A stretch of 60,409 bases of DNA from Candidatus Pacearchaeota archaeon (GTDB lineage: Archaea > Nanobdellota > Nanobdellia > Pacearchaeales > GW2011-AR1), in NCBI GenBank assembly GCA_018304025.1, contig JAGVXA010000002.1, positions 1 through 60,409 of the forward strand, written 5' to 3'. The position numbers were made by a program, and so were the translations under genes. The notes beneath the pieces are model-generated. The model saw nothing but the letters and a program-made list of their open reading frames with translations. It was not told where the DNA came from and did no database searches. The first letter of the stretch is position 1; the number at the start of each line of letters is the position of its first letter. Shown here one piece after another: positions 2,649 through 57,933 of the stretch.

Positions 2649-2922
2649 TTCGGCACGCATTGGACTCACTAAATTAATCTTTTCGGTGCGCAAATTGGAC
2701 TTGCCCGTTCTTGCGGCTGGCAAGTCTTATTGTTAATAGCTCACTTCGTTCGCTGATGCGCACCGAATAATTGCTTCGCTGACAATCGCGAGTCTTATCT
2801 GTAAAATTCGCTGTTGATGCGTCGCAATTGGACGCACAATTGCGTTCGGCTGTGCGTCTTATCTGTAAAATTCGCTCCGCGAATTTGGCGACGCATCAAC
2901 TCCGCGAATTTGGCGTGCCGAA
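2649..2922. repeat. Compound nested REP/MITE-like element (outer element plus two inner elements)
   Basis: Outer TIR ttcggcacgc/gcgtgccgaa; inner ttcggtgcgca..tgcgcaccgaa at 2682-2767; inner gttgatgcgtcgc..gcgacgcatcaac at 2813-2900. Confidence 0.85.
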
Positions 2923-3058
2923 AGAGAGAATAATTTTAGAGAAAAGATTTAGTCGGGATTAATTAGTTTGGTAAAATCCTGAAGGGATGTGAGATAATTT
3001 ATTTGCGTATTGGAAGATTTAACGAATAATTTATTAACTAATTCTTTCAGCAGAATAG

Positions 3059-3871
3059 ATGAACGAATTGATTTCAGCGCTGATTATCGCGGTTGTGCAG
3101 GGCTTGACAGAGTGGATGCCGATTAGTTCTTCGGGGCATTTGATTTTGTTTGAGAAATTACTTGATTATTCGGGGGGACTGATGTTTGACGTCGCGCTGC
3201 ATTTTGGAACTTTAATGGCTGTGTTTGTTTATTTTGGCGGAGATATTGTTGATATTGTGAAGGATTTTACTTCTTTAAACTGGAGCTCTGAGAATGGGCG
3301 CTTGGGCTTGCTGATTTTGATAGCGACTTTACCGGCTGTTATCGTGGGTTTTTTATTTAAGAATATTTTTTTGAATGCGTTTGATTCTTTGGGAATTGTT
3401 GCATTGGGTTTTGGGATTACCGGCTTGATTCTTTTGATTGCTTCTTTTCAGCGGCGGATTAAAAGAAAGAAATTAGACGGCAGGACGCTTGAAGTTGGGG
3501 AAAAGAGATTTGGCTATTTTGATGGATTTCTCGTCGGGTGCGCGCAGATTTTGTCTTTGTTTCCAGGGATTTCGCGTTCGGGTGCGACGCTTTCTTCCGG
3601 GCTTTTGCTTGGGCTGGATGAAAAATCAGCTATGAAATTTTCTTTTTTGATGTCTATTCCAATTACATTTGGGGCGAATATTTTGGTTATTGGAAATAAT
3701 ACTCTGCCTTCTAATCTAATTTGGGCTACGCTTGTCAGTTTTGGCGTTGGCTTGCTTGCTATTCATCTGCTGTTCAAACATATTTTGACTTCCCGGCGCA
3801 ATTTGAAGTGGTTTGCGATTTACGCGCTTTTATTGGCAGGGATTTTGGGGATTTGGGTTGGGATGAGTTAG
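3059..3871 (+). CDS. uppP: Undecaprenyl-diphosphate phosphatase (BacA family)
   Basis: QGLTEWMPISSSGH and PGISRSGAT signature motifs, multi-TM. Confidence 0.95.
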   Translation: MNELISALIIAVVQGLTEWMPISSSGHLILFEKLLDYSGGLMFDVALHFGTLMAVFVYFGGDIVDIVKDFTSLNWSSENGRLGLLILIATLPAVIVGFLFKNIFLNAFDSLGIVALGFGITGLILLIASFQRRIKRKKLDGRTLEVGEKRFGYFDGFLVGCAQILSLFPGISRSGATLSSGLLLGLDEKSAMKFSFLMSIPITFGANILVIGNNTLPSNLIWATLVSFGVGLLAIHLLFKHILTSRRNLKWFAIYALLLAGILGIWVGMS

Positions 3872-3986
3872 AGGGGTTTTGGGCAGTGGAGGATTGGTTG
3901 GTTTTGGAGGGATGAATTAGTAGAGAATAATTTGATTCAATGTTTAGTTAAGTTATATTTAAATAGAATATGCAGTTTAATTAATA

Positions 3987-6900
3987 ATGAAAAAGATGCG
4001 GGTGAATCAGAAGAGATTTTTTATTATCTTGATATTTACTGCTGCAATAATTGCGGCAATTTTATTATTAATTTATTCTAAACAAAATGTTCCGTTTTCT
4101 CCTGCTGATTCTTACAGAGTTTTTGCAACAAACCAAACATTCGACGGAAAATTGGGGGGAGTTGAAGGGGCGGATGCAAAATGTCAAGAATCTGCGAATA
4201 CTGCCGGGCTTATTGGAAGTTGGAAAGCGTATATTGGAAAAACAGGAGCTGTTCCAGAATCAAGAATTTTTCAATCTTCTTTGCCTTACAAAAGATTAGA
4301 CGGAGCGTTAATAGCCAATAATTGGAATGATTTAACAGATGGAGGCATAGCAGTACAGATTGATATCGATGAATATGGACAGAAGGTAACTGCAGAACAA
4401 TATTCAACATTTCTTTTTGCTTGGACAGGAGATACTGACTCGGATGGAAAAATAAGCGCCTGCAGGGATTGGACAGCAAATAATCTTGTGTATTCCAATG
4501 GAAAATGGATTTTGCCGGCGCTGTGGAAAGAGTATGGGGGTGCGGGAATAATAAATTGGAAAGACACTAATCGAAATAATGCCCAATGGTATCATGGAGC
4601 TAGTTCTGGATGCCATGTTAAAAATAGATTGTATTGTGTTGAGCAGCCCATGTGCGGAGATGGGATGTGCGATGTTGGGGCTGGAGAGGATTGTTCAAGT
4701 TGTGAGAGTGATTGCGGGGCTTGTGCGCCTGTTTGTGGAGACGAAATATGCAGTGGAAATTTAGATGAAGATTGCGACGGTTTAATTGATTGTGCAGATA
4801 CTGATTGTTCAGAAGAATCTATTTGTATTGCTCCTTCTTTTCCAGAAGATTATGTTTCTTATTGGAGATTTCAAACTGAGACAGATGGAATAACTCCTGA
4901 TGAAACGGGAGCAAATCCTGGGACTTTTCATGGAAACGCAGCAATAATTTATGATGCAGAAAAAGGAAAGGTCCTTAGTTTAGATGGAGATGATGATTAT
5001 GTTGATTTCGGAGATCCTAATATTGGAACAGGAGGAACTGAACTTTCAGTTTGTGCATGGATAAAAGTTCCCACAAATGAAATATCAAGTATACAAACTA
5101 TAATAGGACAATCTGGCGATGGCAATGATCCTTTTTCTTTTTTTATAGACGCTAACGAAGATATTGCATTTAATGTTAATAATAATGCTCATTTAGATTT
5201 TGTTGGGAAATTTCAGGATGGCATATTAAATAAAGCAAGTATTTGGCGTTTTGTTTGCGGGGTTCTTGATGGAACGAACGTAATGGTTTATTTAAATGCT
5301 AGGAAGAGTGCAACTGTTGTGCCTTGGGGAGGGGGAGTAATTGATGATAGCAGTCAACCATATGTTCACTTAGCTATTGGATCTGTTACTGATGATGCAA
5401 ATCCTCCTTCAACTGAGTTCAGCGGAGCAATTGACGACGTAATTATTTATAACAGAGCTTTGAGCGTAGAAGAAATTCAAGCAATCTACAACACTCAAAA
5501 TCCAGGAATTCTTCTAGATTGTTCAGAGCAAGAGGGAGTTATTTGTTCAGTGCTAGAATCCTGTCCTGGAAACCATTTACTTGCTTCTGATACGACTGAA
5601 TGCTGCGATAGTGCTTGTGTCGAGATTCCAGATACATGCAATGAGTGCGGGGTTGACCCGCTTAATCCGTGTGATATAGAAGAATGCCAGTCAATAGCAG
5701 GATGCCACTATACCTTGTTTAATGGATGCAAATCATGCAAAGGCACAACTTGTATAGCCTCCTATGGCATTGATGAAGCAGCATGCGATGCAAATGTTTG
5801 TGGTATTGCGGGGGGATGCAGTTGGCAGATTGACTCAGGCAGCTGCATCATGGGCTCTCCTGAACCTGAATGTTTTACTGACGACGACTGCAATTCTGGT
5901 AGTTGGTGCGGCGGCGGAAAATGTTTGACAGACTATTGTGAATCTGAACATGGCTGTGTTTATTATGTTGATAATGACGGGGGAGACGGATTGCAGAGCG
6001 GATGCAGCGATAGCAATGATGGACGGACATTAAACACGCCATTTTGCACAATTCAAAAAGCCGCTGATATGACGGGGCCCGGAGATACTGTAATGGTAAG
6101 AGGCGGGACTTATATAGTCGAATGTCCTAAAAAGTTATGTGAGATCCTTCACATCATTAGACCTGGAACTTCAGAGAAGCCAATAACTTACACAAATTAT
6201 AATTATCCAAATGAGAAAGTAATTTTGCAAGGACATGGGTTTGAGGATAGAGACTTGAATGGAGACGGTAAAGCTGACGGTATAGCTCTTACATTGCCTG
6301 ATCAAGAGAAACTGATTTGGATACAGGCAAATCATATTCATATAAAGGGATTTGAACTAAAAGAATCCAGCGCGGGAGGAATAGTAATTTCCGGCAGTTT
6401 TAATCTTATTGAAGAATGCATTGTTCATGACAATTGGCTAACTGCGGTGGGAATTGGATATTCTACTTCGGAGACGACAATTGTTGAAAGTAACATAGTA
6501 AGGAATACAGAAACTTATGGAAATCGCCACGGTTATGGAATCACTATAGGAAGAAACTCTCCGGGCAGCAAGGATTCTTATTTGAACTACGTAAGAAATA
6601 ATAAAATAGAAAACTGTCTAAGTTATAATAATGGTTATGAATCGGGGGGATTTAATAATGTTTTGCCTATAGGAGGAGATGGGGACGGAGGAGGAAATAG
6701 CGACGGCATGGGAGCATCTAAGCTGTGCAGTTATTATCATACTCTTAATGGCGTAACATGGGATGATTTTAATTGGTGTCCTAATAATTCAATAATAAGC
6801 AATATTATTTTTGGCAATGCAGATGATGGTATGGATGTCTCCTTTTCAGATTCCCTTTTAAGCCGAAACATAATGTTTAGCAACGGACCTGACGGAGGAG

Positions 6901-7505
6901 TAGGAATTAAGGTGTTCGCTCCCGCTGAAAATTTGTTCTTTGATTCAAATGTAGCTTTTGATAATCATATCGGATATGAATTCAGGCAAGATTTAGGAAG
7001 AACTCCATTTACATTATACCACAATCTGGACTTGCGGAATGTTAAACCAACGCTAATTATCCCGCCAAATAGTGCAAACATAAACAATAAATGGGGCGGC
7101 GGTGAAGGTCTTGTCAATCCTTCTTTTGCTTTTGAAGGAGACTTTTATGTGAGCAGATTACTAAGAAATCAGGATAGCTGCTTTTGCCGCGCAGGGATTC
7201 TATTTGTACCTTGTACTTGTCCGGATTCTTATAGTTTGAACTTCCCAGAATTATATACGGTGGAGATGAAGATTGCATATATGATGGATAAATTTAGGGC
7301 CGCGTTCAGCCCTGCTTCTGACAGTTTATTAATTGATGAAGGAATGTTTGTTCAAGGACACCATTGTTCAGCTGCAGGAGAGCGCTCTGAAGAAGACTGC
7401 AGAGAATGGTATGGTTCTTATCCAGATACGGGGGCGTTTGAATTTAGCACCCCTATTAGTTCTCCTCTTAGTTTATGGCAAATAATTTTGGAGTGGTTTA
7501 AATAG
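3987..7505 (+). CDS. Large membrane-anchored surface protein: DUF1554-like domain, Cys-rich repeats, LamG domain, right-handed beta-helix (pectin lyase-like)
   Basis: N-terminal TM; RVFAT..GxLGG..GADAKC; YWRF...LDGDDDYV...FSGAIDDVIIYNRALS (LamG); YYVD...PFCTIQKAAD..GPGDTVMVRGGTY followed by beta-helix repeats. Confidence 0.8.
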   Translation: MKKMRVNQKRFFIILIFTAAIIAAILLLIYSKQNVPFSPADSYRVFATNQTFDGKLGGVEGADAKCQESANTAGLIGSWKAYIGKTGAVPESRIFQSSLPYKRLDGALIANNWNDLTDGGIAVQIDIDEYGQKVTAEQYSTFLFAWTGDTDSDGKISACRDWTANNLVYSNGKWILPALWKEYGGAGIINWKDTNRNNAQWYHGASSGCHVKNRLYCVEQPMCGDGMCDVGAGEDCSSCESDCGACAPVCGDEICSGNLDEDCDGLIDCADTDCSEESICIAPSFPEDYVSYWRFQTETDGITPDETGANPGTFHGNAAIIYDAEKGKVLSLDGDDDYVDFGDPNIGTGGTELSVCAWIKVPTNEISSIQTIIGQSGDGNDPFSFFIDANEDIAFNVNNNAHLDFVGKFQDGILNKASIWRFVCGVLDGTNVMVYLNARKSATVVPWGGGVIDDSSQPYVHLAIGSVTDDANPPSTEFSGAIDDVIIYNRALSVEEIQAIYNTQNPGILLDCSEQEGVICSVLESCPGNHLLASDTTECCDSACVEIPDTCNECGVDPLNPCDIEECQSIAGCHYTLFNGCKSCKGTTCIASYGIDEAACDANVCGIAGGCSWQIDSGSCIMGSPEPECFTDDDCNSGSWCGGGKCLTDYCESEHGCVYYVDNDGGDGLQSGCSDSNDGRTLNTPFCTIQKAADMTGPGDTVMVRGGTYIVECPKKLCEILHIIRPGTSEKPITYTNYNYPNEKVILQGHGFEDRDLNGDGKADGIALTLPDQEKLIWIQANHIHIKGFELKESSAGGIVISGSFNLIEECIVHDNWLTAVGIGYSTSETTIVESNIVRNTETYGNRHGYGITIGRNSPGSKDSYLNYVRNNKIENCLSYNNGYESGGFNNVLPIGGDGDGGGNSDGMGASKLCSYYHTLNGVTWDDFNWCPNNSIISNIIFGNADDGMDVSFSDSLLSRNIMFSNGPDGGVGIKVFAPAENLFFDSNVAFDNHIGYEFRQDLGRTPFTLYHNLDLRNVKPTLIIPPNSANINNKWGGGEGLVNPSFAFEGDFYVSRLLRNQDSCFCRAGILFVPCTCPDSYSLNFPELYTVEMKIAYMMDKFRAAFSPASDSLLIDEGMFVQGHHCSAAGERSEEDCREWYGSYPDTGAFEFSTPISSPLSLWQIILEWFK

Positions 7506-7540
7506 AATTTATTAATGCAAATACGGCAGGATATCAAAAT

Positions 7541-8953
7541 CTAAATCTTCTTAAACAAAATTTCTGATTTTTTAATTGGTTTTATTGTTAATGGCTTGTT
7601 TAATTCAGAGAGAGATAATTTGAAATTAAATGTCTTTGCGATTTTTTCTGAAGTTTCTGGGAGAAAGGGGCTTAGCAAAATTGTGAAATCTTTGATTGCT
7701 TTTACTAAATCATAGAGAACTTTTTTATCATAAGTTACCCAGGGCTTTTTGTTTTGGATGTATTCATTTGTTTTATCGACGAATGCGAAGATTTCACTTA
7801 ATGCTTTGTCTGTTTCGTAATTCTCGAAGAAGGATTCTAATTTCTTTAGCGTTGGTTTTATGTCGAGAGATTTATCTTCTGATTTTTCCAAGCCATATTT
7901 TTCTGCCAATGTTGAAACTCTTGAAATGAGATTTCCTAATTTGTTTGCCAGTTCGTTGTTGTGTCTTTCTATCAAGATTTCTTCGCTGTAATCAGAATCA
8001 TCGAAGACAGAGCATTTTAACAGCGAGTATCTTACTGAATCTATTCCGTATTTTTCTGCAAGTTCGACGGGATTGATTGTGTTGCCAAGTGATTTGGATA
8101 TTTTCTGTCCTTTGAGATTGAGATAGCCGTGGACTAATAATTTTTTTGGGAGTTTTTGTTTTGTCGAGATTAGCATTGCAGGCCAGATTACTGAATGAAA
8201 CCAGTTAATTCCTTTTCCGATTACATGAACGTCTGCAGGCCAGTTTCCCTTGGCTCCGGAAATATAATTTATTAACGCGTCGAACCAGACGTAGATTTTG
8301 AATTTTTCGTCTATTGGTGAATCTATTCCCCAGTCGAGATTTGTTCTTGAGACGCATAAATCTTTCAGTTCTTCGTCTTTTAATCTGGAGAGAATTTCGT
8401 TTTTTCTTTTATTTGGAATTATGTAATCTTGATTGAATTTGATTATTTGCGATTTGTATTTGCTTAATCTAAAGAAGTACGCTTCTTCTGAAATCCATTT
8501 TGGAGCTGTGTTGTGCTCGGGGCATTTGCCGTCGACTAAATCTCTTTCTGTTTTGTAAGCTTCGCAGCCCTCGCAGTATAATCCTTCGTATTTTCCTTTG
8601 TAGATGTCTTTGTTTTTGTAAGCTTCGAGGAAAAGTTCTTTTGATTTGTTGACGTGTTCTTTTGAAGTTGTTCTTATGAAGAAATCGTTTGAGATGGAAA
8701 GTTTTTTGCATAGTTCTTCAAATATTTTCGAGTTTTTGTCGACGAATTTTTGCGTCGGGATTCCTGCTGTTTTCGCGGCTTGCGCGTTTTTTTGGGCGTT
8801 TTCGTCTGTGCCTGTTAGGAAGAAAACTTTTTCGTTTTGGAGGCGATGCCATCTTGCGAGAGCGTCGGCTAAAACTTTCTCGAACGCGTGCCCGATGTGG
8901 GGGGATGCGTTTACGTAGTCAATTGCTGTTGTTATGTAAAATGTTTTTTTCAT
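7541..8953 (-). CDS. metG: Methionyl-tRNA synthetase (short, MetRS1-like)
   Basis: FYITTAIDYVN..PHIGH, LTGTDEN, CEGC..CPEH knuckle, YVWFDAL, KISKS. Confidence 0.95.
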   Translation of the reverse strand: MKKTFYITTAIDYVNASPHIGHAFEKVLADALARWHRLQNEKVFFLTGTDENAQKNAQAAKTAGIPTQKFVDKNSKIFEELCKKLSISNDFFIRTTSKEHVNKSKELFLEAYKNKDIYKGKYEGLYCEGCEAYKTERDLVDGKCPEHNTAPKWISEEAYFFRLSKYKSQIIKFNQDYIIPNKRKNEILSRLKDEELKDLCVSRTNLDWGIDSPIDEKFKIYVWFDALINYISGAKGNWPADVHVIGKGINWFHSVIWPAMLISTKQKLPKKLLVHGYLNLKGQKISKSLGNTINPVELAEKYGIDSVRYSLLKCSVFDDSDYSEEILIERHNNELANKLGNLISRVSTLAEKYGLEKSEDKSLDIKPTLKKLESFFENYETDKALSEIFAFVDKTNEYIQNKKPWVTYDKKVLYDLVKAIKDFTILLSPFLPETSEKIAKTFNFKLSLSELNKPLTIKPIKKSEILFKKI

Positions 8954-8992
8954 AAGGATTAGAAAGGCGGGAGGTATAAAAAACTAACTGCC

Positions 8993-9158
8993 TCGGCACG
9001 CAATTGCTGTTTGACAATTTTGTGCGGCTGTCAAACAGTTATTTATTTACAAAATTCCTTCGTTTTCGGCGCGAATTGTCGTGACAATTCGCTATCGGTT
9101 TGAAAATTTGCTTCGCAAATTTTCTGCGCGCCGAAAATAATTTTGTTGGCGTGCCGAA
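8993..9158. repeat. REP/MITE-like element carrying a nested 75-bp element (9063-9137)
   Basis: Outer tcggcacgc/gcgtgccga; inner perfect 11-bp TIR ttttcggcgcg/cgcgccgaaaa; near-identical to 13513-13676. Confidence 0.9.
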
Positions 9159-9162
9159 TTAA

Positions 9163-9531
9163 CTAAGAAAGATTTTCTGGATTGGAGAAATAAGAATCAA
9201 CGTAATTTGTTAATCCTTCTGGAGACTGCCTTTCTGTGAGATTTGGGTCTCGGGTTATTTTTCCCCGGTAAACATTTAATAAATTTGTCCTTAGAGGGTT
9301 TGGAGTGTAAGAATCAAATGAAAAAAGAGTGTATTTTATTTTTGTTCCCTTTACTGCGCCCGAAGTGCGAATTCTTACTTCGTCTACTGGGGCAAAAATT
9401 TCCTGTACTTTCTGCTCGATTTTGTCAGATTGCCTGGTTTCGTTGATGATAACAAAATTCATATGATGCACTATCGGGTCTGATTCTGAACGGAATTCGT
9501 ATCTTATTTGCCTTTGGATTTTTTTTGCCAT
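9163..9531 (-). CDS. Hypothetical protein
   Basis: 122-aa ORF with TTTATATA box ~24 nt upstream of ATG. Confidence 0.65.
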   Translation of the reverse strand: MAKKIQRQIRYEFRSESDPIVHHMNFVIINETRQSDKIEQKVQEIFAPVDEVRIRTSGAVKGTKIKYTLFSFDSYTPNPLRTNLLNVYRGKITRDPNLTERQSPEGLTNYVDSYFSNPENLS

Positions 9532-9573
9532 CGGATTTTTATTTTATTCAGATATATAAATTATATTGTTTTT

Positions 9574-9612
9574 GCCCGCCAATTGTCGTGACAGTTCGTT
9601 ATCTTTTTGAAA
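9574..9612. repeat. Truncated copy of the REP-like element
   Basis: aattgtcgtgacagttcgttatc matches the inner element at 9074-9096. Confidence 0.6.
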
Positions 9613-9623
9613 AGATTTAAAAA
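9609..9623 (+). promoter_or_regulatory. BRE + TATA box of rpl15e (example of the window-wide gaaaRnTTTAWA promoter)
   Basis: gaaaagaTTTAAAAA ending ~22 nt before ATG 9645; a similar motif precedes the genes at 16178, 18391, 56352 and 58035. Confidence 0.7.
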
Positions 9624-9644
9624 CCGAATTTTGTAAGAGTTAAG

Positions 9645-10220
9645 ATGGTTAACGGACTAAATTATTATCTAAGACAGGCGTGGAAAAAGCCGGACAAGGA
9701 AACTTTGAGAAACAGAATGGTTGAATGGAGAGCTGACGACGCTATTGTCAAAGTTGAGAAACCTTTGAGATTAGACAGGGCTCGCGCTTTGGGATATAAG
9801 GCGAAAAAAGGATTTGTTGTTTTGAGAGTCCGCCTGAACAGAGGAGGACGCAAGAGAGTCAGATTTGGCGTTAAAGGACGAAAGTCAAAAAATCAGACTA
9901 TTAGAAAAACATTAAAGATGAGCTATCAGTGGGTTGCTGAAATTCGGGCTGCGCGGAAATACAAAAATCTGGAAGTTTTGAATTCTTACCCAATTGGAAA
10001 AGACGGGAATCATTATTTCTTTGAAGTTATTATGGTTGATTCTTCGAAGCCAGAGATTCGAAATGACAGGACTTTGAAATGGCTTTCTGTCGGAACGAAT
10101 AAAAAAAGAGCTGAACGAGGATTGACCTCTGCTGGGAAAAAATCGCGAGGATTGAGAAGCAAATCGCCGAGGATGAAAGTTCGTCCTTCATTAAGAAGTT
10201 GGGACAGAAAAGGAAAATAA
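9645..10220 (+). CDS. rpl15e: 50S ribosomal protein L15e
   Basis: RLDRARALGYKAKKGFVVLRVR, NLEVLNSY..DG..FFEVIMVD, RGLTSAGKKSRGL. Confidence 0.97.
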   Translation: MVNGLNYYLRQAWKKPDKETLRNRMVEWRADDAIVKVEKPLRLDRARALGYKAKKGFVVLRVRLNRGGRKRVRFGVKGRKSKNQTIRKTLKMSYQWVAEIRAARKYKNLEVLNSYPIGKDGNHYFFEVIMVDSSKPEIRNDRTLKWLSVGTNKKRAERGLTSAGKKSRGLRSKSPRMKVRPSLRSWDRKGK

Positions 10221-10221
10221 A

Positions 10222-10422
10222 ATGAATGTTATAACTGTTCCTTTTTTTCGAGATAGAAATTTGAGGATTGAAAGTTATAATTCTGCTTATGTTTTGCAGA
10301 GCGCTGTTGATATATTTTACTCAGAAGGCAATCAAAAGGGAGATGAGGATGTTAAACCTGTTGAGAGAAAAGTTGAGATGATTGCTGAGATTAGCGACGA
10401 TAAATTAGATTTGACTGGTTGA
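10222..10422 (+). CDS. Hypothetical small protein
   Basis: ATG 1 nt after the rpl15e stop; no recognisable motif. Confidence 0.45.
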   Translation: MNVITVPFFRDRNLRIESYNSAYVLQSAVDIFYSEGNQKGDEDVKPVERKVEMIAEISDDKLDLTG

Positions 10423-10437
10423 TAAAAGGAATTCTAG

Positions 10438-10716
10438 TTAATTCTTTTTCTTTTTGGAACTTTTTCCGTATTTAATTATTAGATACAATACAGAAGATGC
10501 CAATACAAGATTTATAGAATTAATTAAAATCATCGGACCATTGACTAATACAATGCCATAAATTAACCAAAGCAAAACGCCAGTTATATAAATAATATAT
10601 CTAGAAAGAGATAAATCTTTAGCTGACTTTGTTCTCCAACTTTTAAGGATTTGTGGAATGATTGAAATTAAAATTAAGAATCCTGCTGCATAACCTATCA
10701 AGTCTATTAATGGCAT
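10438..10716 (-). CDS. SemiSWEET / PQ-loop sugar transporter
   Basis: IPQILKSWRTKSAKDLS..LWLIYG..PMILIN, 3 TM, 92 aa. Confidence 0.9.
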   Translation of the reverse strand: MPLIDLIGYAAGFLILISIIPQILKSWRTKSAKDLSLSRYIIYITGVLLWLIYGIVLVNGPMILINSINLVLASSVLYLIIKYGKSSKKKKN

Positions 10717-10762
10717 AATTATCTGGAGAGTTGATGGATATAAAATACTTTGGATTTGATTT

Positions 10763-13069
10763 TTATTTAATTTCTTCGTCGGTGTTTTGTTGAGTATCTG
10801 GAGATTTGTTTCCCCATTTTGCTTTCTTCGCTTCCCATTCTTCCCGATTTTTTTTCACAATTTCGCAGTCTTTGTTGAAGCAAAATTCCCAGGGGCGCTT
10901 GCCTTTTCTTATTGCCAGCAATTTGGGCCAGCCGCAGGATTCGCAGATTTTTTCTGATTTTTTTATCAAGGCGTTTGGCGGGAGATAGTATGTGTTTTTG
11001 CATTCAGGATAACTTGAACAGCCGATGAAAGAACGCCTGATTTTTGGAGAATACATTATCCTCAGATTTCCTTTTTTGCAGACAGGACACTGGTTGAGCG
11101 TGTTATTTTCTCTTTCTATTTCTCTTTGGGATTCAATTCCTTTCATGATGTCTTTTCCGATTTGGATTTCTTTTGCCTTGAATTCTTTTGAAATATCTGT
11201 GATTAATCTTTCTGCTTTTTGGATGACTTGTGTTTCCTGCTTCAAGAAATCTGATTTTGAAGTTTGGATTTTCTCCATTTCTTCTTCCAACTGCCTTGTC
11301 AAGTTTTCGTCTATAATTATAGGAGAGTATTTTTCCAAAGATTCGATTAACTGCATCCCTAAATGTGTTGCCTGAATTGATTTGCCGTCGAGGTATCCCC
11401 TGTCAAATAAAGTGTCAACGATTGATGAGCGGGTTGCTTTTGTTCCGAGATTTTTCTTTTCAAGAATTGTTATCAAGGATGTTGGAGTAAATCTTTTTGG
11501 CGGCTGAGTTTCTTTTTCGATTATTTTTATTTCGTCTATGTTCACATCGCCGTTTAATGTCGGACAGTCTTTTTCTTCTAATGCCGCGGGATAAACTTGA
11601 GTCCATCCTTTATCTATTACCTTTAATCCAGATGATGTGAATGTTATTTTTGGATTTTCTTTTGCAGTTATTTTTACCCTTTTATTTTGTGTGACTGCAT
11701 CCGGAGAAAAAACCGAGATGAATCTTCTTGCTATGATGTTATAGATTTTTTCTTCCTGTTCTTTTAATTCTTTTTGAGGGAGCTCTCCAGTTGGGTAAAT
11801 TGAAGGATGCGCTGGGTCTGACTTTTGACCTTCAATTGGATTTTTTCTTGTTGCTAATTTTATCAAACCGGGGAATTGTTTTTCCAAAGACTTGAGAATT
11901 TCTTTTGGAGCAATTGCCTCTGGAATTTTTTGAGAAGATGTTCTCGGATAAGAGATTAATCCGTCTAAGTATAGTTTTTGGGCTGTGGCTAATGTTTGAG
12001 AAGGGGAGATTCTGTGGAGCCGGTATGCTTCTCTCTGGAGGGAAGTAAGATCAAACGGAACAGGAGGAGAAATATTTTCTTTTGTTTCTTTTGTAACTGC
12101 TGTGCCTTTTTTGATGTTCTTGAATTTTTCTAATTCTTCTTTTTTGAAAATATCTTCGGGATGCTTGAACTCGTGTCCGTTGGCTAACGCAAAAACCTGC
12201 CAAAACGGCTCTGGCTTGAAGATTGCAATTTCGTGCTCTCTATCGACGATTATTTTAAGCGCGGGGCCCTGAACTCTTCCAATTGACAAAATTTTGAAAG
12301 AGCCGGTTGTTTTTATTGCTGACATTAGCGCTCTTGAAAGATTTATTCCATAAAGCCAATCTAGAATGTGCCTTGTTTCTCCGGCGTACGCCTGCCCCCA
12401 ATCCGGCTCTGGCATGAGATTTTCGTAGGCACTTACTAATTCTTTTTTTGTCAGCGTGGAATATTTCATTCGTTTTGCTGTTTGTTTTCCGCAGATAAAT
12501 CTTAAAACATTCCAGCCGATGACTTCTCCTTCTATATCGTAGTCTGTTGCTATGACAAATTGCTCTGATTTTCTCGCGAGTTTTTTTAACACGTCAAGAT
12601 ATTTTTTTGTGAATGTTGCTGATTTTTTGTTGTAGGATGGTTCCCATTCTATTTTGAAAATTGGCCATCCTTTCTGCCCTTTTGAATATGTCAGATTGAA
12701 AAGATGCCCTACTGCTGACGCGACTATTATTTTTTTCCCGTCGTGAACTAATTCAAAATAAGAAACTCTGTCTGGCGAGGTGATTTTTTTTGAAGAGCCG
12801 AGTGCTTCGGCAATTTTTTGGGCTGCCTGCGGTTTTTCAGTTATTATCAGAATTGAGTCTTTGATGGGTTTTGAAATTTTTATTGGCTCAATTGTTGCTT
12901 TTTTTGATTTTCTCGGACGTTTTTTTTCTGCTGGAGATTCAAGATTTATTGGGACTGGCCTGCCCGGAGATTCAATTGTTGTTAATTCCTGGGTTGTTGG
13001 TTTTGGCCTTACTAGTTTTTCAACTGTTTGTTTTGATTCTGATATGGGGATGAAATTCTCAACTGCCAT
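10763..13069 (-). CDS. topA: Type IA DNA topoisomerase with C-terminal Zn ribbons
   Basis: ITEKP, VGHL, ATDYDIEGEVIG, SIGRVQGP, ISYPRT (catalytic Tyr), GTKATR; CPVC/CESC ribbons. Confidence 0.95.
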   Translation of the reverse strand: MAVENFIPISESKQTVEKLVRPKPTTQELTTIESPGRPVPINLESPAEKKRPRKSKKATIEPIKISKPIKDSILIITEKPQAAQKIAEALGSSKKITSPDRVSYFELVHDGKKIIVASAVGHLFNLTYSKGQKGWPIFKIEWEPSYNKKSATFTKKYLDVLKKLARKSEQFVIATDYDIEGEVIGWNVLRFICGKQTAKRMKYSTLTKKELVSAYENLMPEPDWGQAYAGETRHILDWLYGINLSRALMSAIKTTGSFKILSIGRVQGPALKIIVDREHEIAIFKPEPFWQVFALANGHEFKHPEDIFKKEELEKFKNIKKGTAVTKETKENISPPVPFDLTSLQREAYRLHRISPSQTLATAQKLYLDGLISYPRTSSQKIPEAIAPKEILKSLEKQFPGLIKLATRKNPIEGQKSDPAHPSIYPTGELPQKELKEQEEKIYNIIARRFISVFSPDAVTQNKRVKITAKENPKITFTSSGLKVIDKGWTQVYPAALEEKDCPTLNGDVNIDEIKIIEKETQPPKRFTPTSLITILEKKNLGTKATRSSIVDTLFDRGYLDGKSIQATHLGMQLIESLEKYSPIIIDENLTRQLEEEMEKIQTSKSDFLKQETQVIQKAERLITDISKEFKAKEIQIGKDIMKGIESQREIERENNTLNQCPVCKKGNLRIMYSPKIRRSFIGCSSYPECKNTYYLPPNALIKKSEKICESCGWPKLLAIRKGKRPWEFCFNKDCEIVKKNREEWEAKKAKWGNKSPDTQQNTDEEIK

Positions 13070-13137
13070 TTTATCGATAGAAATGGGAGGTTTTTAAAGG
13101 TTATAGATTTTTGGGGTTTAGCGCAAGAACAAGCAAT

Positions 13138-13392
13138 TTACTTTTTGATGTGCTGTTTGAAATCATTAGCTAAACTTTTGAACTGATTAGATAAATGATT
13201 ATGTGAAGAAATTAATCTTGCCAAAGACAGCCCGATGGTAAAAACGCAGCCGAGATTAAAAATTAAAAGCGAAATAATAATGTCTTCTGTAGTCCATGAA
13301 CCGCCGAGTATTCTTTTTATTATTTGGTAGACGATGAAAAATCCGAAGAGAATTAATATTGTTATTAGGATATTTTCAACTGTCTTTTTCAT
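13138..13392 (-). CDS. Small two-TM membrane protein
   Basis: 84 aa, two hydrophobic segments and a coiled-coil tail. Confidence 0.65.
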   Translation of the reverse strand: MKKTVENILITILILFGFFIVYQIIKRILGGSWTTEDIIISLLIFNLGCVFTIGLSLARLISSHNHLSNQFKSLANDFKQHIKK

Positions 13393-13394
13393 TG

Positions 13395-13475
13395 TTATTT
13401 AACTAAGAGCCAAACTATAAGCGCGATTATAACCAAGGCAATTATCCAGAGAAGATATTTGAGATTGTTTTTCAT
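13395..13475 (-). CDS. 26-aa single-TM microprotein MKNNLKYLLWIIALVIIALIVWLLVK (not in ORF track)
   Basis: ATG 22 nt after gaaaagcTTTTATA; stop 2 nt before the next ATG. Confidence 0.55.
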   Translation of the reverse strand: MKNNLKYLLWIIALVIIALIVWLLVK

Positions 13476-13512
13476 TTATTAAATAGGAGAAGATTGTATA
13501 AAAGCTTTTCTT

Positions 13513-13676
13513 TTCGGCACGCGATTGCTGTTTGACAATTTTGTGCGGCTGTCAAACAGTTATTTATTTACAAAATTACTTCGTTTTCGGCGCGAATTGT
13601 CGTGACAATTCGTTATCGGTTTGAAAATTTGCTTCGCAAATTTTCTGCGCGCCGAAAATAATTTTGTTGGCGTGCC
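13513..13676. repeat. REP/MITE-like element carrying the nested 75-bp element (13584-13658)
   Basis: Near-identical to 8993-9158; the insert-free form is at 57842-57933. Confidence 0.9.
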
Positions 13677-13680
13677 TAAT

Positions 13681-14289
13681 TCAGATTTCAATAATTTTTC
13701 CTTTTCTGCCGACGTTAATCACTTTTGTTTCGTTGATTTTTTCTTCAATGCCTTCGCCTTCGTGGATGTGCCCGTGGATTAGAATTTCCGGCTTGAATTT
13801 TTTAATTGCTTTTCTGACTGATTCTGAACCTGGAATTCCTGAGAATTCTGAATAGCTTTCTGCTGGATGCTGGTGCGTTACCATAATTTTTTTTTCTATT
13901 CCCTTTAATCCGTCGTGCGCTTTTTTTAATGTTTCAAATAATTCTTTTTCTGTTATCCTTCCGGGGCCGGGGCCTTCTGCTCCGCCTGCTCCGAAAAATC
14001 CGACGTTTTCATAAATTGCGGAATAGCCGTGTATGTTTTTCACACCGTATAAATTTGCGAGAAAGTCGGTTGTTGCGAACGAGTCCCAGTTTCCGGGGAT
14101 TATCAAAACTCTTTTTTTCTTGTCTTTGAACGGCTTGATTATATTTTTTGTTTCTGTCCAGCCGGTGTTGTCGCCGCATAAAACTACTAAATCGACGTTT
14201 TCTTTTTCTGCTTTTTCTGCGAGTTTCTTGACTGTTTTTGAGTCGCCGTGCGTGTCTGATGCTGCGAGAATTTTCAGTTTCTTTGCCAT
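13681..14289 (-). CDS. Calcineurin-like metallophosphoesterase
   Basis: SDTH, GD, PGNWD, H, HGHIHE motifs. Confidence 0.9.
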   Translation of the reverse strand: MAKKLKILAASDTHGDSKTVKKLAEKAEKENVDLVVLCGDNTGWTETKNIIKPFKDKKKRVLIIPGNWDSFATTDFLANLYGVKNIHGYSAIYENVGFFGAGGAEGPGPGRITEKELFETLKKAHDGLKGIEKKIMVTHQHPAESYSEFSGIPGSESVRKAIKKFKPEILIHGHIHEGEGIEEKINETKVINVGRKGKIIEI

Positions 14290-14339
14290 GTTCTTTACTA
14301 GAGAATCAGATTTATAAGTGTTGGTTTTTTAATTAGAGA

Positions 14340-14921
14340 ATGAAAAAGAGAGGGATGTCAGCTTTTGGCGTTGTTTTAATTATTTTGATTTTTGTTCTTG
14401 CTGGATTAATTGTTATGGGGATAGTTTTATATTCTTCTTCTAAGGAAAAAGATTATACTGAGATTTATTCTGAAAGAAATGCTTCGGGAAATTTTGTTAA
14501 TCCTGCGGCGAGTTTGACGAATGAAGAAGCGATTGCAGCGTTTGACGAGAGTTTTGTTTATTACCTTCTTGTGAATATTAAAGCTTATAATTTGCATGAA
14601 CCTTTGGCAAGTTCGGACACGCCGAAAATTGAACTTTACATTGGAGAAGATATTTTTAATGCAGAAGTGAAAGACGGAGAAATTGATGTTAATGGCGGTG
14701 AAATTGAAGGAGAGGATATAATTATTCGAACTTCGAAGGAAGAAGCTGTTGAGATGACGAGAGAAAAAAATTATATCAAGAGTTCTTTTGAGAACGGCAA
14801 GTCCAGCATAGAACTTGTTTCTGGGAAGACCGAGCTCTTTTCAAAAGGTTATTTGAAACTTTATACTGAATTGACCGGAAAGAGTTTTACCGGGAGCGCT
14901 ATTAAAAGATTTTTTTCTTAG
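14340..14921 (+). CDS. Membrane-anchored protein, possible SCP2-like lipid-binding domain
   Basis: N-terminal TM; FNAEVKDGEIDV..EDIIIRTS pattern resembles SCP2 folds (inference). Confidence 0.6.
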   Translation: MKKRGMSAFGVVLIILIFVLAGLIVMGIVLYSSSKEKDYTEIYSERNASGNFVNPAASLTNEEAIAAFDESFVYYLLVNIKAYNLHEPLASSDTPKIELYIGEDIFNAEVKDGEIDVNGGEIEGEDIIIRTSKEEAVEMTREKNYIKSSFENGKSSIELVSGKTELFSKGYLKLYTELTGKSFTGSAIKRFFS

Positions 14922-14927
14922 TTAGGC

Positions 14928-15117
14928 TTTGTTGAAAATTTTTTGTTTGGAGTTATCTTGCCCCCACCCACTCGCGATCACGTTCGTCATTTGCTTTTTT
15001 TTACTCGAACGTGATGCGCTCGCCCCGCCCTGCTTGTCCAAATATTCTTCGTTGTCGCTCAGAATATTTGGCAATTTAGTGCAAGATAACTTATTCGTTT
15101 TTAACTTTTTCAACAAA
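14928..15117. other. Structured intergenic element (long closing stem plus two hairpins)
   Basis: Paired arms tttgttgaaaa/ttttcaacaaa, agttatcttgc/gcaagataact, atcacgttcg/cgaacgtgat, ccaaatattct/agaatatttgg. Confidence 0.7.
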
Positions 15118-15235
15118 AATTCTTAGTTGTCTCTTTGAAAGAGAGGCGGGCTTTTGCTACTTTTTTGGATGACAGGAGTGGAGAAAGATTTAAAAGTCAT
15201 GCATGAAGTGTAATATATAGGTTGGAAAATATAAC

Positions 15236-15520
15236 ATGATAGGAGAAAAAACAAAAGAAAATTTTGACATCTTTTTCAGAAGAAAGCCGGCGCTGATGCT
15301 GGTTGCTTTGAAGAAGATTGCACGCGCCCGTTATGGCTCGATTTTAGCAAAGGAAGTTGACTGCACTTATTCTCATGCTGTTAAGATTTTGCAGAGCTTG
15401 GAAAGACTGGGGCTGGTTGTTTTTGAGAAGAAAGGGAGAATTAAGCTGATTAAATTGACTAAGAAAGGACAGGAAATTGCAGAGAATATTGAGAATATTA
15501 AGAAGTTGATTGCTAGTTAA
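15236..15520 (+). CDS. Winged-helix (MarR-like) DNA-binding protein
   Basis: LAKEVDCTYSHAVKILQSLERLGLV..GRIKLIKLTKKG. Confidence 0.85.
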   Translation: MIGEKTKENFDIFFRRKPALMLVALKKIARARYGSILAKEVDCTYSHAVKILQSLERLGLVVFEKKGRIKLIKLTKKGQEIAENIENIKKLIAS

Positions 15521-15560
15521 TTCTTTTTTTGAATAATTTTTCGTATATAAAATATATTTG

Positions 15561-15645
15561 TTTTCTGGCCGAATTGGACGCCAATTGCGGAGGCTGGCGT
15601 CTTATTTGTTTGAAAATTCACTTCGTGAATTTTCCGCGCGCCGAA
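15561..15645. repeat. Single REP-like element
   Basis: aattg + gacgcca..tggcgtc + ttat + gaaaattcac-ttc-gtgaattttc + cgcgccgaa. Confidence 0.8.
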
Positions 15646-15693
15646 TTAACTTGTTAAAAAATCTCATTGACTCACTCTTGTTGCGACGAGCAA

Positions 15694-15764
15694 TGATCCC
15701 GCTAATCGAATTCTTTCTGAATTCTCAAACAAACGCTGCAATAACATCGTTCGAGGGATTTGAA
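15694..15764 (-). repeat. Duplicated 3' end of tRNA-Ile interrupted by a 51-nt insert
   Basis: Minus strand TTCAAATCCC (15764-15755) + 51 nt (15754-15704) + AGCGGGATCA (15703-15694), matching the tRNA 3' 20 nt. Confidence 0.85.
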
Positions 15765-15797
15765 GCTCACTGCGGTGCTCCTCGCTACGGCAGGCGA

Positions 15798-15892
15798 TGA
15801 TCCCGCTGGGATTTGAACCCAGGACCTCTGCCTTTCTGATAATTTTTATGTAATATCAGAGCAGCGCTCTAACCAGGCTGAGCTACGGAATC
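15798..15892 (-). tRNA. tRNA-Ile(GAT) with a 20-nt canonical 37/38 intron (15834-15853)
   Basis: Acceptor GATTCCG/CGGGATC-A; anticodon arm CTGCT-CTGATA^A-GGCAG; T-arm CTGGG-TTCAAAT-CCCAG; BHB helix CTGA/TCAG. Confidence 0.93.
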
Positions 15893-15894
15893 TT

Positions 15895-15967
15895 GAGACT
15901 CTAAGCGAAGCGTGGTTTTGAGTCCTTTCTTTCTTGGACGATTAACCAGGCTGAGCTACGGAATCTT
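15895..15967 (-). repeat. Upstream duplicate of the tRNA-Ile 5' end plus fold-back insert
   Basis: 15943-15967 identical to 15870-15894 (25 nt); spacer ATCGTCCAAGAAAGAAAGGACTCAAAACCACGCTTCGCTTAGAGTCTC. Confidence 0.88.
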
Positions 15968-15987
15968 AGAGTTCTAACAAAATCTGC

Positions 15988-15997
15988 TTTTATAAAA
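15988..15997 (-). promoter_or_regulatory. TATA box for the tRNA-Ile locus
   Basis: TTTTATAAAA ending 23 nt before G1 of the upstream duplicate fragment. Confidence 0.55.
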
Positions 15998-16040
15998 TTA
16001 TCCCAAACAATTATTAATCTTAAAATTTAACAAATAACGG

Positions 16041-16112
16041 GCGTCGTTAGTCTAGTGGTTAAGATACGAGCTTCCCAAGCTTGTGACGCGAGTTCAATTC
16101 TCGCACGGCGCA
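16041..16112 (+). tRNA. tRNA-Gly(CCC)
   Basis: GCGTCGT/ACGGCGC-A acceptor; CGAGC-TTCCCAA-GCTTG; GCGAG-TTCAATT-CTCGC. Confidence 0.95.
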
Positions 16113-16177
16113 TTTTCTTTCACCGCAGAAAATTTTCATACAGAAAAACTTTATAACCCTTTTCGCTTAATAATGTC

Positions 16178-16624: not shown

Positions 16625-16655
16625 TCTTTAAAAATGCATTTTTCCTAAAACTAAG

Positions 16656-17222: not shown

Positions 17223-17370
17223 TCGCTAATTCATATCGCTCGATATTTTTCGAAAGAGGACGCCAGCAATTTTCTGCGCAATGAGCAATTGCCTTAACAA
17301 ACAGTTACTATTAAAAAGTGTTACAAGAATATAAATAATCTTGTTTCCATTAAGCCCTAAATAATTTAAA

Positions 17371-17957: not shown

Positions 17958-17973
17958 TTTTGATTTACCAATC

Positions 17974-17981
17974 TTTAAAAA
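17974..17981 (+). promoter_or_regulatory. TATA box for the tRNA-Lys locus
   Basis: TTTAAAAA ~29 nt before G1 of the upstream duplicate fragment (18010). Confidence 0.55.
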
Positions 17982-18083: not shown

Positions 18084-18085
18084 AT

Positions 18086-22172: not shown

Positions 22173-22217
22173 TTTCTGGCCGCAATTGCTGTTTGACAAT
22201 TTGTGTGGCTGTCAAAC
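22173..22217. repeat. Left half of a REP-like element
   Basis: tctggccgc-aattg-ctgtttgaca..tgtcaaac, truncated at the MFS stop codon. Confidence 0.7.
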
Positions 22218-31651: not shown

Positions 31652-31814
31652 TTTTCTGGCCGCAATTGGATTTTGCTTCGCAAATTCTTATCGGTAAAAA
31701 TTGCTTTTGATGCGTCGCAATTGGACTCGCTGACAATCGCGAGTCTTATCGGTAAAATTCGCTCCGCGAATTTGGCGACGCATCAACTCCTCTCCGTGAA
31801 TTTAGCGTGCCGAA
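31652..31814. repeat. REP-like element with nested 80-bp element (31707-31786)
   Basis: Inner TIR ttgatgcgtcgc/gcgacgcatcaa sits in hairpin 2 of the outer element. Confidence 0.85.
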
Positions 31815-56009: not shown

Positions 56010-56290
56010 GCAAGATAATTAGTGTGATAGAATTTTTAGGTGGGAGATAATTAATGTGATAATATCGAGAAATTAGCCTTCGGCTAATTTCCGAATATTT
56101 ATTGATAACGAGAGAGATTTGGGGGAATAATTATCTGGATAGAATTGAGAAATTAGCCTTTTTCGGCGCGCATTTGGACGCACAATTGCGTTCGGCTGTG
56201 CGTCTTATCATTAACCAAATTCACTTCGTGAATTTGGAGAGCGCGCCGAGCAATTTCCGAGAATTTTGTGATAATGAGAGAGATTTTGAG
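56010..56290. repeat. Second cluster of the purine-rich hairpin repeat family
   Basis: gaaattagccttcggctaatttc at 56069-56091; the next unit (56149) is interrupted in its loop by a REP-like element. Confidence 0.75.
56163..56249. repeat. REP-like element inserted in a family-2 hairpin loop
   Basis: tcggcgcgc/gcgcgccga TIR; hairpin 1 identical to 2831-2858; ccaaattcac-ttc-gtgaatttgg. Confidence 0.85.
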
Positions 56291-56771: not shown

Positions 56772-56805
56772 TTAGATTTATTAATTTGATATTCTTAGAA
56801 AATTC

Positions 56806-57816
56806 ATGGGATTGCAGATAGGAGAGATTGTTCCGAGGAAGGCGATTTCGTTTTCGGAGTTGAAGGGGAAGATTGTAGCTGTGGACGCATACAACGCGAT
56901 TTATCAGTTTCTTAGTTCAGTGAGACAGCCGGACGGGATGCCTTTAATGGACGACAAGAAAAGAGTGACGTCGCATTTAAGCGGATTATTTTACAGGAAT
57001 ATTTCTTTGATGGCGGAGGGAATAAAATTAGTCTATGTTTTTGACGGCGAGTATCATGAGTTGAAGGGGAGGACGCATTCTATTCGGGGAGAGGCGAAAG
57101 AACTCGCGCGGGAAAAATACGAGAAGGCGCGCGATGAAGAAGATATCGAGGGGATGGGGAAATATGCGCGGGGAAATATTCGGCTGACAAAAGAAATGGC
57201 TGAAGAGTCAAAGGAATTATTAGAGGCGATGGGAATTGGAATTGTGCAGGCGCCGGGCGAGGGAGAAATGCAGTGCGCTCAGTTGGTTAAAGACGGCGCT
57301 GCTTTTGCAGTCGGCTCGCAGGATTACGATGCTCTTGTTGTCGGCGGGACTCGATTGATTCAAAATTTAACTTTAGCGCGAAAGAGGAAATTAGCGACGG
57401 GTTATGTTTATATTTCTCCGGAAATTCTTGAATATTCGCGCGTACTTGGCGATTTGGGGATTGACCCTGACCAGTTTATCAGCTTGGCTATTTTAGTAGG
57501 GACTGATTTTAATCCTGGTGGGGTTCATGGAATTGGGCCGAAAAAAGCATTGGCTTTAGTCAAGCAAAAGAAATATCCTGTTGAGATTTTTAGAGAAGTT
57601 GAACATTTATTGGAATTTAATTGGCAGGAAGTTTTTGAAATTTTTAAGAAGCCGAATGTTCATGCTGGTTTGAAGGTTAGTTTTCCTAAACGAGATAGTT
57701 TGAGGATTAAGAAGATTCTTGTTGACGAGCATGATTTTAACTTGGAGAGAGTTGAGAGGCAATTGGAGAAACTTGAAGAGGGGAAAAGAAAATCTTCCCA
57801 GCAAACTTTATTCTAA
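56806..57816 (+). CDS. fen: Flap endonuclease 1
   Basis: VDAYNAIYQFL..RQPDG, TSHLSGLFYR, VFDG, APGEGE, SQDYD, GTDFN; PIP-like QQTLF. Confidence 0.97.
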   Translation: MGLQIGEIVPRKAISFSELKGKIVAVDAYNAIYQFLSSVRQPDGMPLMDDKKRVTSHLSGLFYRNISLMAEGIKLVYVFDGEYHELKGRTHSIRGEAKELAREKYEKARDEEDIEGMGKYARGNIRLTKEMAEESKELLEAMGIGIVQAPGEGEMQCAQLVKDGAAFAVGSQDYDALVVGGTRLIQNLTLARKRKLATGYVYISPEILEYSRVLGDLGIDPDQFISLAILVGTDFNPGGVHGIGPKKALALVKQKKYPVEIFREVEHLLEFNWQEVFEIFKKPNVHAGLKVSFPKRDSLRIKKILVDEHDFNLERVERQLEKLEEGKRKSSQQTLF

Positions 57817-57841
57817 TCTAGACATATAAAATAAGGCTTGT

Positions 57842-57933
57842 TTCGGCACGCATTTGCTGTTTGACAATTTTGTGCGGCTGTCAAACAGTTATTTATTTAC
57901 AAAATTACTTCGTAATTTTGTTGGCGTGCCGAA
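57842..57933. repeat. REP-like element, empty (insert-free) allele
   Basis: Same as 13513-13676 but with intact caaaattac-ttc-gtaattttg hairpin. Confidence 0.9.

Follow-up and report, generated by a model that had tools for sequence, protein, structure and literature searches.

Three-stem repeat units in a Pacearchaeota contig

The window analysed here is the whole 60,409-nt contig JAGVXA010000002.1 of the Candidatus Pacearchaeota archaeon assembly GCA_018304025.1, and it carries at ten loci copies of a non-coding, mostly intergenic repeat of 80–90 nt (70–100 nt across copies) that folds into a three-armed junction, referred to below as the three-stem unit. The genome under study (G000) comprises 992 kb in 29 contigs, is 88% complete with 1.1% contamination, and includes the window as contig C6. 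Ten loci with units or fragments had been proposed from the bare sequence (the original prediction), and inspection found them at all ten (Table 1). The proposed order of parts, namely, left arm, A(A/T)TTG, hairpin 1, TTAT, hairpin 2 and right arm, likewise holds, and all stem variants listed with it are present. In a clean unit, such as that at 57843–57932, the left arm (CGGCACGC) is preceded by TTT, TTAT is followed by a few further bases, and AAA or AATTAA comes after the right arm. Hairpin 1 has 7–10 bp and a loop of ~12 nt, hairpin 2 has 8–9 A/T-rich bp with a C-G pair closing a T-Y-C triloop, and the closing stem has 8–13 bp, the junction linkers AATTG and TTAT being single-stranded and nearly invariant. 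This three-way junction recurs in single-sequence folds of 26 units, 21 of which have perfect closing stems of 7–13 bp.

The near-invariant parts of the unit are CGC-AATTG-GAC, GTC-TTAT and the hairpin-2 loop. Stem variation takes the form of a few discrete whole cassettes with few G-U intermediates (one-side changes, 0–3 per pair), and the cassettes recombine freely, one arm type being found with several hairpin-1 types. About nine copies are long forms, in which the hairpin-1 position holds an extra covarying hairpin (GTAAG...CTTAC) and ~35 conserved bases; the short forms, which are the common ones, resemble long forms with an internal deletion. A long-form module (the GTAAG...CTTAC hairpin followed by CAACTTTCCCCTTGAGATACTGCTCATGGCTG) is also present between the tRNA-Val and tRNA-Ala genes at C3:157–330, where it has neither arms nor the AATTG junction, and to judge from this copy the module may be able to exist on its own.

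Table 1. Three-stem units and fragments in the window, and IS200-like termini at the contig ends of the genome (C, contig; CM, covariance model; IS, insertion sequence)
Position	Strand	Feature
2649..2923	+	Composite; outer CGGCACGC unit, left arm 2649-2658, right arm 2913-2923
2683-2766	+	CGGTGCGCA unit inside hairpin 1 of the 2649 composite
2817-2896	+	GATGCGTCGC unit inside the hairpin-2 loop of the 2649 composite
8993..9158	+	Composite; outer CGGCACGC / CTGTTTGACA unit, its hairpin 2 interrupted after the CTTCG loop by a CGGCGCG unit (9066-9134)
9574..9613	+	Fragment GCCCGCC-AATTG-TCGTGACAGTTCGTTATC, left part of the CGGCGCG/TCGTGA subfamily; TATATAAA at 9553-9560
13514..13679	+	Second copy of the 8993 composite; inner unit 13587-13655
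15561..15650	+	Single unit, CM 32.6 bits; left arm CTGGCCG unpaired with right arm CGCGCGCCG; TATATAAA at 15544-15551
22173..22217	+	Left-half fragment (CTGGCCGC-AATTG-CTGTTTGACA hairpin) ending before TTAT, between two convergent genes; nhmmer match 22168-22220
31652..31814	+	Composite; outer CTGGCCGC...GCGTGCCGAA unit, hairpin 1 GATTTTGC-TTC-GCAAATTC; CM 89.3 bits
31710-31783	+	GATGCGTCGC unit in the hairpin-2 loop of the 31652 composite
42510..~42850	+	Array of stacked GATGCGTCGC units, three left halves followed by three right arms; fold -151.1 kcal/mol
42544-42627	+	CGGTGCGCA unit in the first hairpin 1 of the 42510 array
42736-42809	+	Only complete inner unit of the 42510 array
56163..56249	+	Simple unit CGGCGCGC / GACGCACA / CCAAATTCAC; CM 63.6 bits
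57843..57932	+	Simple unit CGGCACGC / CTGTTTGACA / CAAAATTAC; CM 39.0 bits; uninterrupted host form of the 8993 and 13514 composites
C7_R, C17_L, C27_L, C21_L, C20_L		IS200-like right end
C1_L, C14_L, C4_R		IS200-like left end

Copy number and covariation

The repeat is far more abundant than chance would allow. CGCAATTG occurs 15 times in the window against an expected 2.79 ± 1.67 (15 was reached in none of 100 shuffles), and a scan of the genome for the grammar of TTG, perfect hairpin and TTAT gave 126 matches as against 52–67 in three shuffled genomes; a loose regular expression for arm pairs, which returned 2,632 mostly spurious candidates, was dropped. An nhmmer profile built from 25 seeds marks 76 pieces totalling 5,731 bases, ~0.6% of the genome, which group into 52 loci, only four of them inside crude (greedy) open reading frame (ORF) calls. 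MAFFT alignments of all seeds put the right arm in the wrong place, and RNAalifold run on them recovered two hairpins only; the CM was therefore built from 10 seeds of equal architecture (81 positions, 24 pairs). Applied to the genome and its relatives, as the original prediction had proposed, it finds 61 copies in G000 at E ≤ 0.01 and eight in four congeners. Copies in G000 are confined to 13 of the 29 contigs (445 kb), which have slightly higher GC content and skew, and none is found on the other 16 (547 kb). A mixed bin was considered as the cause of the copy-free contigs and rejected: contamination stands at the 1.1% given above, the same IS ends join both contig sets, and relatives carry copies in regions orthologous to copy-free contigs. 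In a principal component analysis of tetranucleotide frequencies, the two sets are only partly separated.

Covariation was measured on a CM-fitted alignment of 72 rows, comprising 66 sense matches (eight of them from relatives) and six antisense re-hits. Paired cells amount to 95.1%, compared with 72.9 ± 0.7% after shuffling, and both-side, compensatory changes occur in 23 of the 24 modelled pairs. Double-changed cells number 333 against 91.6 ± 7.7 in shuffled alignments (0 of 500 reach 333), and only 17–40 are counted when the partner is slid by 1–3 columns. These figures lean towards structure, since the alignment was fitted to the structure and its rows are related, but the margin is still large. 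The claim that covariation implies structural selection is thus supported by compensatory changes in all three helices, the closing stem included. The accompanying description of the family as conserved in fold and not in sequence was right about the pairing and overstated as to sequence, because the junctions are nearly invariant; mean column identity is 66–80%.

Orientation relative to replication

In all 61 CM matches the sense strand coincides with the G-rich strand of the contig, as it does in 75 of the 76 nhmmer matches, the lone exception being read as + by BLAST. The eight copies in the four congeners all follow the local skew as well. GC skew is unusually strong and is uniform within each contig (|skew| 0.07–0.28) and is not merely transcriptional, since the coding-strand skew of ORFs of at least 200 aa is +0.263 on the G-rich strand and −0.052 on the other. 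Genes are not polarised in this way: 13 of 31 tRNA genes and 300 of 588 ORFs of at least 200 aa lie on the G-rich strand. If, as we assume from the usual reading of GC skew, the G-rich strand is the leading strand, then the sense strand of the three-stem unit has the sequence of the lagging-strand template. The strand component of the skew is about ±0.16, atop a coding-strand purine bias.

Nested composites

Five of the window loci (2649, 8993, 13514, 31652 and 42510) are Russian-doll composites, in which units sit inside the hairpins of other units. GATGCGTCGC-type units are found at one constant point of the hairpin-2 loop in at least eight different hosts, and CGGTGCGCA units are located inside hairpin 1 of theirs. 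The 2649 composite has a nested minimum-energy fold of −116.6 kcal/mol and CM matches of 47.4 and 96.9 bits. Identity between the composites at 8993 and 13514 is 98% across 168 nt, with unrelated sequence on either side, and other near-identical pairs and trios of copies also have diverged flanks. Simple units vary too: that at 15561 is probably a chimera or a decayed copy, and the one at 56163 forms a longer closing stem together with its flanks (~56140–56275), an extended form that recurs at C13:26128 and C21:56036. No contig spanning an empty site was found among Logan contigs from four DNA runs compared with window positions 1–20000. Pieces of these contigs end at element borders (e.g. 2722, 9022 and 13553) and resume beyond them (9126 and 13647), and the apparent joints are cross-matches between paralogous copies.

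Distribution among relatives

Among 20 other genomes of the genus, four carry the three-stem unit, with 1–6 weaker matches each, which have different stems and the same junction letters. Copy number differs about tenfold between species, and 40 genomes from the remaining genera of this family and order contain no copies. Of the eight copies in relatives, one shares both neighbouring genes with a G000 copy, and the other seven occupy sites that are empty in G000. For example, a spacer of 348 nt that holds the element in one congener (G007) measures 33 nt in G000. Exact empty sites are unreadable between relatives because coding DNA is only ~67–75% identical.

Gene context and the TATA-like box

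Primary copies of the main subfamily share the left extension TTTTTAG-TATATAAA-TTATAT-(G)CGTT, and in 24 of 43 primary loci a TATA-like box starts 16–22 nt before the left arm. The same arrangement was seen by eye in all five displayed loci of relatives. In four of the 24 loci a leftward start codon lies 42–45 nt from the arm and 22–24 nt beyond the box, a spacing as expected for leaderless mRNAs. Three such genes are in the window; for instance, the leftward gene 7541..8953 has its ATG (8953) 22 nt away from the box at 8975–8982, beside the 8993 composite, and TATATAAA at 31635–31642, beside the 31652 composite, is 23–24 nt from a leftward ATG. Read along the sense strand, 33 of 48 loci have a co-oriented gene ending on their left, compared with 48% of the 532 spacers taken as baseline. 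On the right the flanking sequence is A/T-rich, and T runs are frequent but irregular.

Insertion sequences and candidate enzymes

Nearly all 29 contigs end in 97–106-nt overlaps common to other contigs, which are the termini of a few multi-copy IS families; the interiors of these IS are missing from the assembly because contigs end at IS termini. An IS of ~980 bp that encodes a 287-aa DDE protein (rve/rve_3) accounts for two of the overlap groups, which are its ends; a full copy of this IS is found on the metagenome contig L078:2–981, and the right end of the window (60311–60409) is its left terminus (TGTCTTATCCAG...). The original statement that the window holds no mobilising enzyme is correct for plausible movers but incomplete. 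This IS was rejected as the mobiliser, its ends being unrelated to the three-stem element. Likewise, the ends TGTCTTATCC.. and TGTAGTGTCC.. of DDE IS at contig termini do not resemble the inverted repeats of the unit, and the contig-end termini TGTCTTATCCAG.., TGTAGTGTCCGC.. and TGTCGTATCCGA.. are unlike any arm subfamily. A diversity-generating retroelement (DGR) reverse transcriptase and two tyrosine recombinases encoded in the genome were also set aside, as they are on element-free contigs and nothing ties them to the repeat. On the metagenome contig L084:9362–10237, the first 48 nt of an IS terminus are shared and are followed by a 291-aa ORF instead of a transposase; by eye, this ORF has a Cas4/RecB-like C-terminal cysteine cluster.

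A different set of contig ends corresponds to the termini of IS200-like elements (group E to the right end, group F to the left), and congeners have intact Y1 genes in such elements, one example being a 165-aa ORF of G007 (C17:109667–110023). No Y1 HUH transposase (PF01797, RAYT-like genes included) was matched in the assembled G000 contigs, which are 88% complete and from which IS200-like interiors have collapsed out, and no TnpB scored above cut-off in the same contigs. By contrast, Y1_Tnp is found in 14 of the 20 congeners, including all four element carriers, and the Y1 genes of the examined relatives resemble IS200-type elements with ends of their own. The original prediction had suggested looking for copies that flank a Y1 transposase or a reverse transcriptase gene. 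For the former, IS200-like left ends do lie 22–45 nt downstream of copies in two species: in G019 a decayed IS200-like copy has its left end ~45 nt past a three-stem copy, both on the same strand, and on contig C4 of G000 an IS200-like left end begins 22 nt after a composite, again on the same strand. As to the latter, the DGR enzyme is encoded on an element-free contig. When folded, the right end of the IS200-like elements is branched and includes GCGAAGC and GCCGAAGGC hairpins; the loop type C-GRA-G of those GCGAAGC hairpins is also that of the hairpin-2 complement in 33 of 47 units.

Mobile element or structured RNA

A mobile element and a structured RNA, the two possibilities raised by the original prediction, remain the leading readings, and the evidence leans to a mobile element in view of the strand polarity, the self-nesting, the near-identical copies with unrelated flanks and the non-syntenic copies of relatives. 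Specifically, the units may be copies of a non-autonomous, structure-recognised, non-coding mobile element propagated in single-stranded form at the replication fork, a proposal to which we give slightly less than an even chance. Such an element would be recognised by its shape and moved as folded single-stranded DNA at the fork, and would for that reason become fixed in one orientation only. Hairpin loops of older copies would be favoured landing sites, giving rise to the Russian-doll composites, and the most plausible mover would be a Y1 HUH transposase acting in trans from the IS200-like elements of the genus. According to PMC6006769, the substrate of IS200/IS605 transposases is single-stranded DNA at the lagging-strand template, and the features that these enzymes recognise are subterminal hairpins. 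A single-strand element is favoured because strict replication polarity, landing in hairpin loops and putative ends defined by shape and not by sequence are hard to square with RNA genes or with a symmetric MITE (miniature inverted-repeat transposable element) of the DDE type.

A family of small structured RNA genes or modules, each with a TATA box, a ~90-nt three-way-junction RNA and a T-rich tail, and with nested copies representing insertions, appears rather improbable to us. The conserved TTTTTAG-TATATAAA-TTATAT, found in relatives as well, with its box at a set distance from the left arm, is what such genes would have, but rightward transcription at the box-to-start spacing seen for the leftward genes would begin at AATT^GG, past the left arm, and the well-supported closing stem could therefore not form in that RNA. 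Read-through from the co-oriented genes that end just upstream of most loci would cover the whole unit, and the A/T-rich right flanks, often with T runs, fit as well; on the other hand, all 61 copies lie on one replication strand, whereas tRNA genes (13 of 31) do not. As would be expected of functional RNAs, conservation peaks at the junction and loop nucleotides and the stems show covariation, and the sense strand is better folded in 40 of 47 units with RNA parameters (31 of 47 with DNA parameters), yet G-U intermediates are rare and many copies are truncated or chimeric. The single syntenic copy among relatives would fit RNA genes, and the seven non-syntenic ones speak against them. Furthermore, a search of the window against Rfam 15 at gathering scores returned only three tRNAs, and nine loci (short and long forms) searched at E ≤ 1 returned only tRNAs and two chance-level matches, so that no sign was found of the known Rfam family that would have told against the original prediction. 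Hammerhead and other ribozyme cores, C/D boxes and integron attC boxes, looked for by eye, were rejected, as their motifs are not kept between copies and Rfam is silent.

Two further explanations keep the units as DNA or mRNA signals or as a conventional transposon. A polar cis signal, once spreading and now kept by the host, acting either in DNA (as a replication- or repair-linked site, or upstream of promoters) or as an mRNA 3′-end stabiliser or terminator like bacterial repetitive extragenic palindromic (REP) sequences, would account for the strict tie of orientation to the replication strand, the enrichment after co-oriented gene ends, the fixed distance to the TATA-like box and the junction nucleotides kept across species. 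We nevertheless regard it as less probable again than RNA genes: a signal that 16 of 20 congeners and 547 kb of this genome lack is unlikely to have a core function, copy number varies about tenfold between species, and the stacked and truncated copies resemble parasitic growth. The lowest probability goes to a conventional MITE, cut and pasted as double-stranded DNA by a DDE transposase bound to its terminal inverted repeats, a reading that we think improbable. The units are small, non-coding, multi-copy and intergenic, their ends are inverted repeats of 8–13 bp, a 2–3-nt CT(Y) repeat stands beside GATGCGTCGC insertions, and multi-copy DDE IS such as the ~980-bp one are in the genome; yet the inverted repeats are not conserved but covary, with differences from one subfamily to another, the arms are unlike the resident DDE IS ends (TGTCTTATCC.. 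and TGTAGTGTCC..), and the CGGCGCG insertion after the CTTCG loop of the CTGTTTGACA host at 8993 and 13514 has no flanking repeat. Moreover, an element with symmetric terminal inverted repeats should land both ways, and the 61 copies share one orientation.

Several observations also count against the proposed single-strand element. Its link to the IS200-like elements rests on proximity and on short matches, the best of 11–13 nt, only: in a blastn-short comparison of eight representative units (of 61) with 20 end sequences (from nine IS loci of relatives and two G000 contig-end repeats), matches were only 8–18 nt long, the best with E of 0.003, and there was no extended similarity. No Y1 gene is present in the 88%-complete assembly, and the IS200-like elements themselves are weakly strand-biased, with nine of 13 in relatives and three of five G000 right ends on the G-rich strand. 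Terminal inverted repeats are, to our knowledge, absent from IS200/IS605 elements and from the elements derived from them, whereas the ends of the three-stem unit pair. The CT(Y) on both sides of GATGCGTCGC insertions, perfect in some and with one mismatch in others, resembles a target duplication, whereas HUH transposition, as far as we know, makes none, and no 4–5-nt target is shared before primary copies. The TATA-like box at its regular distance would fit an RNA gene too. The folding strand is ambiguous, as the sense strand is the more stable in most units under either parameter set but the conserved loop C-TYC-G (33 of 47 units) yields a hyperstable GNA-triloop type on the antisense strand only; d(GCGAAGC) is a hyperstable example of this type. 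Finally, the model does not account for the lack of copies on 16 contigs.

Comparison with known repeat families

The family is undescribed in those parts of the literature that our survey covered on MITEs in DPANN archaea, archaeal REP/RAYT systems, archaeal palindrome-associated transposable elements (PATEs) and intergenic stem-loop repeats of Pacearchaeota. MITEs have been reported in 20% of archaeal genomes, with the highest densities in DPANN (146 per Mb in Ca. Altiarchaeum hamiconexum and 105 per Mb in a Woesearchaea genome), in a census whose accessible text describes detection based on terminal inverted repeats and target-site duplications and does not name this family, and whose supplementary sequences could hold members of it (PMC11602168).

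The three-stem unit recalls the bacterial REP, BIME and REPIN elements mobilised by RAYT (TnpA_REP, a Y1 HUH enzyme whose gene is usually single-copy with REPs on its flanks) in being a short GC-rich hairpin repeat that is high-copy, extragenic, divided into several subfamilies per genome and often found at gene 3′ ends; moreover, the proposed mode of handling is alike, a single-domain Y1 in trans acting on single-stranded DNA and recognising shape over sequence. However, REPs are single palindromes of 20–40 nt with a GTAG or CGTC tag (PMC3733652), typically arranged as inverted doublets, whereas the three-stem unit is an 80–90-nt three-way junction that has no GTAG/CGTC tag and occurs in one orientation throughout. 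With IS200/IS605 elements and their gene-less derivatives, PATEs, it has in common strand specificity, a presumed tie to the lagging-strand template, which embraces all 61 copies in G000 and all eight in relatives, and predicted hairpin recognition; it differs in that its ends are not homologous to IS ends and pair mutually and in that there is no conserved target tetranucleotide. So far as the consulted portion of PMC6006769 goes, the IS200-type is the only Y1 subclass reported in Archaea. The units could conceivably represent the first REP/RAYT-like system in Archaea, a three-way-junction element moved by an IS200-type Y1 in trans, locked to the lagging-strand template, landing in its own loops and in the melted region ~10 nt from TATA boxes, and carrying promoter-like sequence next to genes, although this fuller scenario seems to us fairly unlikely.

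Correia elements of Neisseria, BOX and RUP of Streptococcus, and ERIC are intergenic repeats of ~100 nt that fold and have no cognate enzyme in the genome, BOX being modular and Correia elements being able to have promoter-like ends and duplicating TA. The three-stem unit is like them in its size, folding, modularity, promoter-like sequence at one end and intergenic position and in the lack of a known cognate enzyme; we do not know of any of these families being locked to a replication strand or forming self-nesting three-way junctions. What sets it apart from known REP/MITE-like structured repeats is that, in an archaeon, it forms a three-way junction, nests in itself and is absolutely polar with respect to strand. 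It is also a structured repeat that takes up ~0.6% of the DNA of an otherwise tiny and streamlined DPANN genome. A 100% polar repeat provides a natural marker of replication direction for uncultivable organisms and a handle on single-stranded-DNA transposition in archaea, a process known from bacteria, and if the link to an IS200-like Y1 is true, REP-like biology of domesticated or parasitic hairpins reaches a second domain of life. On the practical side, the units break short-read assemblies and can mimic small-RNA genes in annotation.

Structured leaders of tRNA genes

Apart from the three-stem family, a structured leader of 60–80 nt precedes the tRNA-Lys gene of the window (~18010–18084) and at least eight other tRNA genes of G000. 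Its layout is stem, (A)AATCG, short hairpin, CTCAA(A) and the complementary stem strand. In the tRNA-Lys and tRNA-Val leaders, the 5′ strand of the stem copies the 5′ end of the tRNA itself, and Rfam and ARAGORN call the downstream tRNA only. The window also has, at 15798–15892 on the − strand, a 95-nt tRNA that is recognised by Rfam and missed by ARAGORN and that probably contains an intron.

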